DNA of 64,000 bases from Candidatus Kaiserbacteria bacterium (GTDB lineage Bacteria; Patescibacteriota; Minisyncoccia; Phycocordibacterales; JABAAK01). Of the stretch, positions 4,958-5,629 are shown one piece after another (the stretch's first letter is position 1; every line of letters starts with the position of its first letter). Position numbers and translations under genes: made by a program. The stretch is taken from contig JAPOOC010000005.1 in assembly GCA_026713605.1 (NCBI GenBank), forward strand, positions 18,836 through 82,835, read 5' to 3'. The notes beneath the pieces are model-generated. The model saw only the letters and a program-made list of their open reading frames with translations. It did not search any database and was not told the DNA's origin.

Positions 4958-5629
4958 CCACAAATATAGTGGTGGTGACTGGATATGATACAGATTGCGT
5001 CCACAAATATAGTGGTGGTGACTGGATATTGCCGTTGTTGTTGCCACAAATATAGTGGTGGTGACTGGTATTTTTACGAGGAAACACCACAAATATAGTG
5101 GTGGTGACTGGTGGCCTACGACAACAAGACCACAAATATAGTGGTGGTGACTGGCCAAATCAGCCACTCGCGCCACAAATATAGTGGTGGTGACTGGCTT
5201 AATATCATATTGAACCCACAAATATAGTGGTGGTGACTGGACAATCGGCATCACCATCCCACAAATATAGTGGTGGTGACTGGCTAAGTCGCCTTTTGTG
5301 GCCCACAAATATAGTGGTGGTGACTGGACTGTGGCTCTTTGCTTGCCACAAATATAGTGGTGGTGACTGGTATTCCAGTAACTGCTTTCCACAAATATAG
5401 TGGTGGTGACTGGATGACCAGTTCATTGACTCCACAAATATAGTGGTGGTGACTGGCATATCGGCGATGTTGCCCCACAAATATAGTGGTGGTGACTGGC
5501 TGTAAAAAAGGGAACAACCACAAATATAGTGGTGGTGACTGGATCCAGTGCGCCGTGTGCCCACAAATATAGTGGTGGTGACTGGCTATATTAAGGATAG
5601 CGATCCACAAATATAGTGATGGTAATAAC
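4958..5629 (+). CRISPR. CRISPR array: 16 repeats of 25 bp (CCACAAATATAGTGGTGGTGACTGG) and 15 unique spacers of 18-19 bp
   Basis: 15 perfect copies of the 25-bp repeat lie at 43-44-bp periodicity (starts 4958, 5001, 5044, 5087, 5130, 5173, 5216, 5259, 5303, 5346, 5389, 5432, 5475, 5518, 5561). A degenerate terminal copy is at 5605 (CCACAAATATAGTGATGGTAATAAC). The intervening 18-19-bp segments are all different. The repeat has a short internal hairpin potential (CCAC-AAATATA-GTGG). Confidence 0.85.

Follow-up and report, generated by a model that had tools for sequence, protein, structure and literature searches.

Type V-D clustered regularly interspaced short palindromic repeat (CRISPR) systems, whose effector is Cas12d/CasY, occur in Candidate Phyla Radiation (CPR) bacteria and have spacers of 17-19 nt and repeats of ~26 nt (bioRxiv 10.1101/2023.12.12.571249). 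Their components are a Cas12d protein of ~1200 amino acids (aa), cas1 and a short-complementarity untranslated RNA (scoutRNA). The published guide of KbCas12d consists of the 25-nt repeat CUCCGAAAGUAUCGGGGAUAAAGGC followed by an 18-nt spacer, and GCCUU of its scoutRNA pairs with AAGGC at the 3' end of the repeat. Here we describe a locus in 64,000 nt of DNA from a Candidatus Kaiserbacteria bacterium (contig JAPOOC010000005.1, positions 18,836 to 82,835 of the forward strand; hereafter the window, to which all unlabelled coordinates refer), in which a CRISPR array with spacers of 18-19 bp is followed by a structured RNA of ~100 nt and a gene for a TnpB-like nuclease of 469 aa. We consider it probable that array, RNA and nuclease gene belong together as a single compact CRISPR-Cas module that is type V-like. 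We read the system as a very rare miniature-effector type V, or CRISPR-associated TnpB, lineage with natively short spacers, and its conserved helper RNA is, judging from sequence, probably scout-like. The system is outside V-D and every named Cas12 subtype.

On the + strand the order is an ABC-transporter operon, its terminator, a leader, the array, a hairpin-rich stretch of ~100 nt that ends in a terminator, and the 469-aa open reading frame (ORF). The array occupies 4958-5629 (+ strand) and is the sole array of the window. Exact matching gives 15 mismatch-free copies of the 25-mer CCACAAATATAGTGGTGGTGACTGG at 4958...5585, with 43 or 44 bp from one repeat start to the next; the 15 spacers measure 18 bp in 13 cases and 19 bp in two. 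Tandem Repeats Finder and a second repeat finder both recover the array at 4958-5629, and the coordinates and the repeat and spacer numbers reported in an earlier note, made from the letters of the DNA alone, are correct. A 16th, terminal degenerate copy (CCACAAATATAGTGATGGTAATAAC; 5605-5629, + strand) has six mismatches to the repeat, all at positions 15-25, and its 3' ...GACTGG end, the segment that we propose pairs with the helper RNA, is gone.

The window spacers are mutually unrelated. Their best ungapped matches to each other average 7.0 nt against 6.8 nt in shuffles, the maximum match is 12 nt against up to 13 nt in shuffles, and no column is conserved within the 15 spacers compared. 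The earlier note had described a CRISPR array with abnormally short spacers, and this is borne out by the identical repeats and the unrelated spacers. It had also named two findings that would speak against such an array. The first, spacers related to each other, is at odds with spacers that are no more alike than shuffles. The second was a satellite that recurs without cas genes: the window repeat has no match in the genome contig collection, and a metagenome scan for related arrays by DNA pattern returned 39 matches, all of them unrelated coding or satellite repeats. Viral contigs gave no match for the window repeat, for the repeat of the sister locus L052 (see below) or for the RNA motifs of both loci. 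An independent Logan assembly of the same population (L003 1-290; logan:SRR8092709_1880) is interrupted within the array, at the repeat that precedes spacer 10, which could reflect an assembler limit or leader-proximal heterogeneity in the population.

We infer that the array reads along the + strand because its degenerate copy lies at the gene-proximal end, because a + strand terminator comes after it, because the G-U pairs of the downstream RNA exist on the + strand only, and because L052 has an identical layout. The small hairpin CCAC-N7-GTGG that the earlier note saw inside the repeat is present in the sequence but is neither significant against shuffles (-3.7 kcal/mol; 95 of 200 shuffles fold equally well) nor kept in the L052 repeat, where a small hairpin lies at repeat positions 9-23. 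Being weak and unconserved between the two loci, it was rejected as a handle of the CRISPR RNA (crRNA).

The presumed effector gene lies 175 bp downstream of the array (5805-7214, + strand) and encodes a TnpB-like or Cas12f-like RuvC nuclease. The 469-aa protein matches the zinc-ribbon domain Cas12f1-like_TNB of Pfam at 68 bits and narrowly passes the NCBIfam model guided_TnpB (104.9 bits; cutoff 100). It scores 49.2 bits against a cutoff of 450 for Cas12f2, 40 against 425 for IS200_TnpB and 34 against 350 for IS607_TnpB, and PADLOC returns weak matches only, at 61-80 bits (Cas12u3 80, Cas12f 73, also Cas12u4). Across the three members of its family the best E-value to the Cas12f2 model is 2.8e-15, and none of the three reaches a curated Cas12 subtype cutoff. 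By alignment to solved Cas12f and TnpB structures we placed the catalytic residues at D274 (RuvC-I, GIDQN), E366 (RuvC-II, AFEKL) and D453 (RuvC-III, HADIN), and a C-terminal CxxC...CxxC zinc ribbon at C424/C427/C443/C446. Invariant columns of the family alignment add a family-specific N-terminal Cys cluster (C71/C79/C81/C85). With these motifs in place, the protein looks catalytically competent.

The best matches in sequence and fold are AsCas12f (77 bits with a profile of the family), OsCas12f, CnCas12f1, the TnpB of ISFba1 and LaTranC, the last at 26 bits and confined to the zinc ribbon. Foldseek reconfirms membership in the superfamily and nothing further, and the AlphaFold model of the protein, with a predicted local distance difference test score (pLDDT) of 51, is interpretable for the RuvC core at most. 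An HMMER scan of 1.84 billion cluster representatives found nothing above 83 bits except the protein itself. Nearly all matches were limited to the RuvC/TNB half, and just two, P0011 (572 aa) and the fragment P0065, have the unique N-terminal half with its Cys cluster in common with the window protein. With a profile search over 5.8 billion clusters included, three family members were detected among ~15 billion proteins: the window protein (P0001), P0011 and a gene at L052. Viral contigs, phage records and plasmid records yielded no family member, only generic TnpB matches to the C-terminal half. NCBI annotates the window protein, from a metagenome-assembled genome of Candidatus Kaiserbacteria, as 'transposase'.

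The link between array and nuclease is drawn from the sister locus. P0065 is the front half of the L052 nuclease gene, in which an indel of one base within a GGGG homopolymer breaks the frame, so that it is called as two ORFs of 241 aa and 177 aa (L052/L053 4925-4990). The frame split is probably a long-read assembly error and not the mark of a pseudogene, and because of it protein databases and gene callers have only fragments of this nuclease. The repaired protein has 436 aa, matches residues 26-464 of the window protein with 30% identity (E = 9e-48) and keeps the RuvC triad and the zinc ribbon. Directly upstream of its gene, on the same strand, is an array of 16 perfect 25-nt repeats (ATCTGAAAGGAGTATGTAACTCTGG) with 16 spacers of 18-21 nt, mostly 18-19; the terminal repeat (ATCTGAAAGGAGTATGTAAAATCTT) has six mismatches in its 3' part, as in the window array. 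The repeats of the two loci are identical at 9 of 25 positions, and geometry and arrangement are unchanged. The earlier note had singled out the adjoining small RuvC protein as of interest, and it was right to do so, as a 30%-identical homologue has an array of the same type with an intervening RNA. Two of the three detectable members of so rare a family have a short-spacer array in the same place; we take this as strong evidence that array and nuclease work together, and it speaks against the chance pairing of an orphan array with a stray transposon gene.

Within 15 kb around L052 we found no adaptation genes and no Cas12d-like ORF. A 1075-aa ORF in this neighbourhood was considered as a hidden Cas12d and rejected: it is repetitive, rich in Thr, Ala, Ser and Gly, has no CxxC and no RuvC, and gives an hhalign probability of 0.1%. 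No accessory ORFs are shared between the family loci. The third member, P0011, is encoded at 10001-11719 of a phage-like contig (L051; ena:ERZ21830300:ctg696275l) with no canonical array. This contig carries two identical 134-nt copies of a structured RNA (9595-9728 and 13187-13320), each with a terminal terminator, one upstream of the gene and the other 1.5 kb downstream. Irregularly spaced units ending in TTCTGG surround the P0011 gene (9200-10000 and 13000-13520), and 13021-13163 holds a pair of short direct repeats that alternate. The RuvC-II column of P0011 reads IAIWDM, with Trp for the Glu that the window and L052 proteins keep; with this substitution P0011 may have lost nuclease function in whole or part, as would be in keeping with a role in binding or regulation.

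Between array and gene lies a structured non-coding RNA of conserved fold, ~100 nt long (5631-5728, + strand), which is our candidate for a cofactor resembling a scoutRNA or a trans-activating CRISPR RNA (tracrRNA). It consists, all on the + strand, of the hairpins H0 (5631-5653), H1 (5656-5672), H2 (5674-5690) and H3 (5692-5709) and a terminator hairpin with a run of seven T (5705-5728; stem 5705-5722). Fold z-scores of the sequence that follows the array are -2.1 to -2.6, better than those of shuffled sequence. In the H1-H3 core, 40 of 59 window bases (~68%; 69 alignment columns) are identical in L052, among them CGTTGC..GACATA..TGC..GTTTGCC, and between these two loci the RNA is conserved in sequence and structure far above the nuclease protein. 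All 16 pairs of H1-H3 are paired in both loci (100%), with three double changes, one change from GC to GU and none broken; when the partners were slid by 1-3 columns as a control, pairing was 25-53% and there were no double changes. The L051 equivalent of H2, CCGCG-ACAGAA-CGCGG, keeps five of five pairs via three further double changes. We treat this covariation as supportive, not conclusive. Four G-U pairs of the RNA exist on the + strand only, and its orientation is therefore fixed. Because one of the L051 copies sits 1.5 kb downstream of the gene, the RNA is not simply a 5' untranslated region. For the window locus Rfam returned nothing, even with the threshold relaxed to E<=1.

In each locus the loop of H2 is complementary to the repeats of that locus. 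The window loop ACAGUCA (5679-5685) faces the repeat end ...UGACUGG, with CAGUC(A) complementary to (U)GACUG; the L052 loop UCAGAGG faces ...CUCUGG, with CAGAG complementary to CUCUG; and the L051 loop ACAGAA gives the complement CAGAA/TTCTG. The + strand of L051 has 18 copies of the hexamer TTCTGG where 2.5 are expected, compared with four of its reverse complement, and 11 of the 18 cluster beside the two RNA copies. Loops and repeats of the same locus are complementary over 5-6 nt, combinations across loci over 3-4 nt. What gives the complementarity its weight, as read from these sequences, is that in three loci it recurs at the homologous loop while the bases co-vary; our rough estimate of the chance that two variable positions are complementary in each of the three is ~(1/16)^2 to (1/16)^3. 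The complementary segment is at the 3' end of the repeat, immediately beside the spacer, and the terminal repeats of the window and L052 arrays have lost exactly this segment, which fits a model in which the 3' end of a repeat matters only with a spacer after it. A long anti-repeat, as in a classical tracrRNA, was rejected, since the window has no reverse-complement match to the repeat with up to six mismatches and the repeat-flank duplex energy is at background (-16.3 versus a mean of -15.9).

Based on these observations we propose how the module would work. An AT-rich leader of 62 nt (4896-4957, + strand) extends from the terminator of the ABC-transporter operon (stem plus T-run; 4870-4889, + strand) to the first repeat and is the presumed promoter region of the array, although no sigma-70 consensus site was called within 4896-4957. 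From this leader, transcription of the + strand would run across the array and through the RNA to the terminator at 5705-5728; alternatively, the structured RNA would be made as its own transcript. Cas12 and TnpB guides universally place the scaffold before the guide, and because of this polarity and the decay pattern of the last repeat we infer a crRNA made of the 3' part of the repeat and then the 18-19-nt spacer. The structured RNA would serve as a trans-acting cofactor of short complementarity, comparable to a scoutRNA or a minimal tracrRNA: CAGUCA in the H2 loop would pair with UGACUG, the last bases of the repeat beside the spacer, and the paired RNA and repeat would form the scaffold bound by the small nuclease, a role suggested by conservation and co-variation. 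The nuclease, in which the RuvC D-E-D triad and the zinc ribbon are intact, would cut DNA complementary to the 18-nt guide, presumably beside a 5' protospacer adjacent motif (PAM), and cutting would defend the cell against phages or other mobile elements. Spacers would be acquired by machinery encoded elsewhere, possibly a Cas1 of V-D type; by analogy of dimensions this is the obvious candidate, and it is speculative.

Of the described systems, V-D resembles the locus in its CPR host, in repeats of ~25-26 nt and spacers of 17-19 nt, and in a crRNA, predicted here, of repeat then spacer. The candidate helper RNA may extend the likeness, as a separate structured RNA in array direction whose complementarity to the repeat's 3' end spans ~5 nt (GCCUU/AAGGC in Kb, CAGUC/GACUG in the window). 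According to the earlier note, few type V systems, from uncultivated bacteria, are reported to have spacers this short, and type V-D of CPR bacteria fits that description. Its suggestion to compare the repeat with known type V repeats led to a partial likeness: 12 of 25 positions are identical to the KbCas12d repeat (p ~0.015), and 11 of 25 for the L052 repeat (p ~0.04), which places both slightly nearer the Kb repeat than each other (9/25). Several V-D repeats begin C-N-CCGAA... and end ...AAGGC. The Kb repeat is absent from the genome contig collection. Other traits separate the two systems. The effector here is TnpB-like and has 469 aa, whereas Cas12d has ~1100-1250 aa, so that size and description set them apart. 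There is no adjacent cas1; the larger ORFs of the window include no cas1, cas2, cas4 or large Cas12, and no adaptation genes were found in ~10 kb past its right end or ~3.5 kb past its left end. The position of the helper RNA is downstream of the array instead of upstream as in V-D, its anti-repeat is in a hairpin loop and not in an internal loop as in the Kb scoutRNA, and the repeat lacks a strong conserved hairpin, in contrast to the Kb repeat (z = -3.2).

We entertain as possible, with considerable reserve, that the V-D look is no coincidence. In one version the system would be a small sister or ancestor of Cas12d, and the design of 25-nt repeat, 18-nt spacer and 5-nt scout contact would be older than the expansion of the effector. 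In the other, a kind of array piracy, a TnpB lineage would have captured V-D-type repeats, would exploit a co-resident V-D Cas1 and would have evolved its own hairpin-loop scout RNA.

The protein brings other systems into the comparison. Like Cas12f/Cas14 (V-F), V-U and TranC systems, the locus has a TnpB-like protein in the range of 400-600 aa with a RuvC domain and a C-terminal zinc ribbon (TNB), which adjoins a CRISPR array with an extra non-coding RNA and no adaptation genes. It differs from V-F in its score of 49 bits against the Cas12f cutoff of 450 and in an N-terminal half unique to the three-member family. A further difference is the complementarity of 5-6 nt in place of the extended anti-repeat duplex of a tracrRNA; the tracrRNAs reported for Cas14a-like systems include very short ones, which have stem-loops and brief stretches complementary to the repeat. 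Proteins of Cas12f type function as dimers. TranC clades are reported to have repeats of 32-38 nt, whereas the repeats here are 25 nt and the spacers 18-19 nt. TnpB guides span a range of lengths that includes ~18 nt, as here, and the narrow pass of the guided_TnpB cutoff likewise recalls the TnpB-omegaRNA systems of IS200/IS605 and IS607 elements. Unlike in those systems, many guides stand in an array upstream of the gene and not a single guide at a transposon end, and the structured RNA lies upstream of the gene and does not overlap its 3' end. We found no TnpA among the window ORFs scanned and no transposon ends or insertion sequence (IS) features, and the gene is single-copy in the 64 kb.

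Cas12r-CRISPR of Thermus phages has 29-bp repeats and 32-33-bp spacers, of which only 18 nt enter the mature guide, and needs no tracrRNA or scoutRNA; its array mimics a co-resident host system, from which adaptation machinery is proposed to be borrowed (bioRxiv 10.64898/2026.04.20.719267). Our locus is like it in having a compact type V effector on a separate TnpB branch, no adaptation genes and a predicted 18 nt of spacer in the mature guide, and unlike it in spacers that are natively 18-19 bp and in a conserved helper RNA. Tandem interspaced guide RNA (TIGR)-Tas systems combine a Nop-domain Tas protein with two alternating repeats and two spacers of 8-12 nt (PMC12045711). They were excluded, as the neighbouring protein here is TnpB-like and not Nop, and the unit of the array is one 25-nt repeat with one 18-19-nt spacer.

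Several points weigh against a single working module. The AlphaFold model is poor and the N-terminal half of the protein is structurally uncharacterised. The covariation comes from two to three sequences, and its shuffle control, at 51/500, is at the ceiling for two rows and non-significant. At one locus, a 5-nt complement to the repeat end occurs in the flank by chance in 33-50% of shuffles, and the minimum-free-energy fold of the L052 RNA sequesters part of the anti-repeat in an extended H2 stem. Adaptation genes are absent near both arrays in the stretches scanned. All assemblies with the window array represent one population with identical spacers; three of them (L001, L002, L003) are 100% identical to the window and uninformative on spacer turnover. 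The source samples are those of the runs behind ERZ27241795/96/98, SRR8092709, and JGI 3300027327 and 3300027532. The search for protospacers that the earlier note had advised was run and gave no protospacer, hence no target and no PAM: three spacers searched exactly in IMG/VR had no match, nor did any of the 31 spacers of the window and L052, at up to two mismatches, in ~400 kb of fetched host-side loci, 18-mers being close to the chance-match limit of large databases.

Compact type V effectors that work with a crRNA only exist, and if the locus were such a module, comparable in this to Cas12a, Cas12r and Cas-delta, the RNA would be an array terminator or an mRNA leader and its complementarity coincidental. 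That the element does end in a terminator, that complementarity at a single locus is at chance level and that the repeat-flank duplex energy is at background would all follow. We nevertheless consider a crRNA-only module unlikely. The sequence and structure of the RNA are conserved far beyond the protein, a complement to the locus's own repeat recurs at the homologous loop in three of three loci, the second RNA copy at L051 is not upstream of the nuclease gene, and the repeats lack a conserved hairpin by which they might act as a handle on their own.

We find it improbable, too, that the array is an orphan of type V-D, served in trans by a distant Cas12d and Cas1, with the TnpB-like gene an unrelated transposon remnant. 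An unrelated remnant would hardly account for a 30%-identical homologue of so rare a protein in the same position behind an equivalent array at L052, or for a conserved intervening RNA that changes along with the repeat. In favour of the orphan reading, V-D is matched by the dimensions of repeat and spacer, by the CPR host and, in part, by the repeat itself (the 12 of 25 positions given above); there is no local cas1, and NCBI labels the protein 'transposase'. Against this stand the lack of any TnpA, IS ends or extra copies in what was found, and of a Cas12d-like ORF in the 64-kb window or in 15 kb of L052.

A guide library outside defence, in which a domesticated TnpB would serve RNA-guided regulation or conflict between elements, is very improbable in our judgement. 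It is P0011, on its phage-like contig and with Trp replacing the RuvC-II Glu, that recommends this reading, together with the missing adaptation module and the absence of protospacers from the viral collections searched (three spacers). The window and L052 proteins, however, keep all three RuvC acidic residues, their arrays hold 15-16 unique spacers each with no match in ~400 kb of host-side sequence, and the window locus sits among the defence genes SoFic, PDC-M49A and type III restriction-modification. A reading outside CRISPR altogether, as satellite, tandem repeat or TIGR-type array, is effectively refuted: the short units (43-44 bp) could recall one, as could the host, since TIGR arrays are also known from CPR bacteria, but the repeats are perfect and found nowhere else in the genome contigs, metagenomes and viral contigs scanned, the spacers have neither a mutual relationship nor any internal column in common, and the TIGR hallmarks (alternating repeats, dual 8-12-nt spacers, a Nop-domain Tas) are not present.

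The surroundings of the module contain defence genes, namely a SoFic-type Fic gene, PDC-M49A and a type III restriction-modification pair. The Fic gene (7665-8876) lies near the array and has a counterpart at L052 (159-1379) that is 59% identical. We rejected Fic as a component of the module and regard its linkage to the array as probably incidental: the Fic family is ubiquitous in CPR bacteria, where members with more than 50% identity number in the thousands, and neither array nor nuclease is present around four Fic genes that are closer or equally close. At L052 an IS30 transposase (2068-2982) stands between Fic and the array. The window region 13683-20542 has the flavour of a defence island, with the candidate defence protein PDC-M49A (685 aa; PADLOC 773 bits) and the restriction-modification pair (methylase 16096-17805; ResIII helicase 17792-20542). 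A 94-aa ORF on the - strand (7207-7491) runs towards the nuclease gene, with an overlap of 8 nt at the stop codon of the latter; Pfam, NCBIfam and PADLOC give no match for this ORF, and neither L051 nor L052 has a counterpart. Further away, at 48201-55155, four paralogous ORFs of ~211-216 aa with 80-89% mutual nucleotide identity surround an AAA_5 ATPase (48843-50708) and a protein with a VWA domain (51459-53717).

The family is nearly invisible to homology searches and the window copy is labelled 'transposase', so that systems of this kind are easily missed. If active, a nuclease of 437-469 aa with a crRNA of ~43 nt and a cofactor of ~75-100 nt would make an attractive compact editor. The locus also raises the question of how arrays without adaptation genes are filled, possibly by a borrowed V-D Cas1. 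To our knowledge the scoutRNA-like principle has so far been tied to the large Cas12c and Cas12d proteins; an apparent helper RNA that would touch the repeat by just 5-6 bases of a hairpin loop points to the same principle in a miniature system. Should the V-D look be no coincidence, in either version, this would be the smallest known scoutRNA-dependent CRISPR effector. Joined here are features so far seen apart, a TnpB-sized protein and natively short spacers, whose length comes near to what small TnpB-like nucleases are believed to require of a guide. TnpB is thought to have given rise to type V effectors many times, and each new type V intermediate, such as the one we propose, represents another route from transposon nuclease to immune system.

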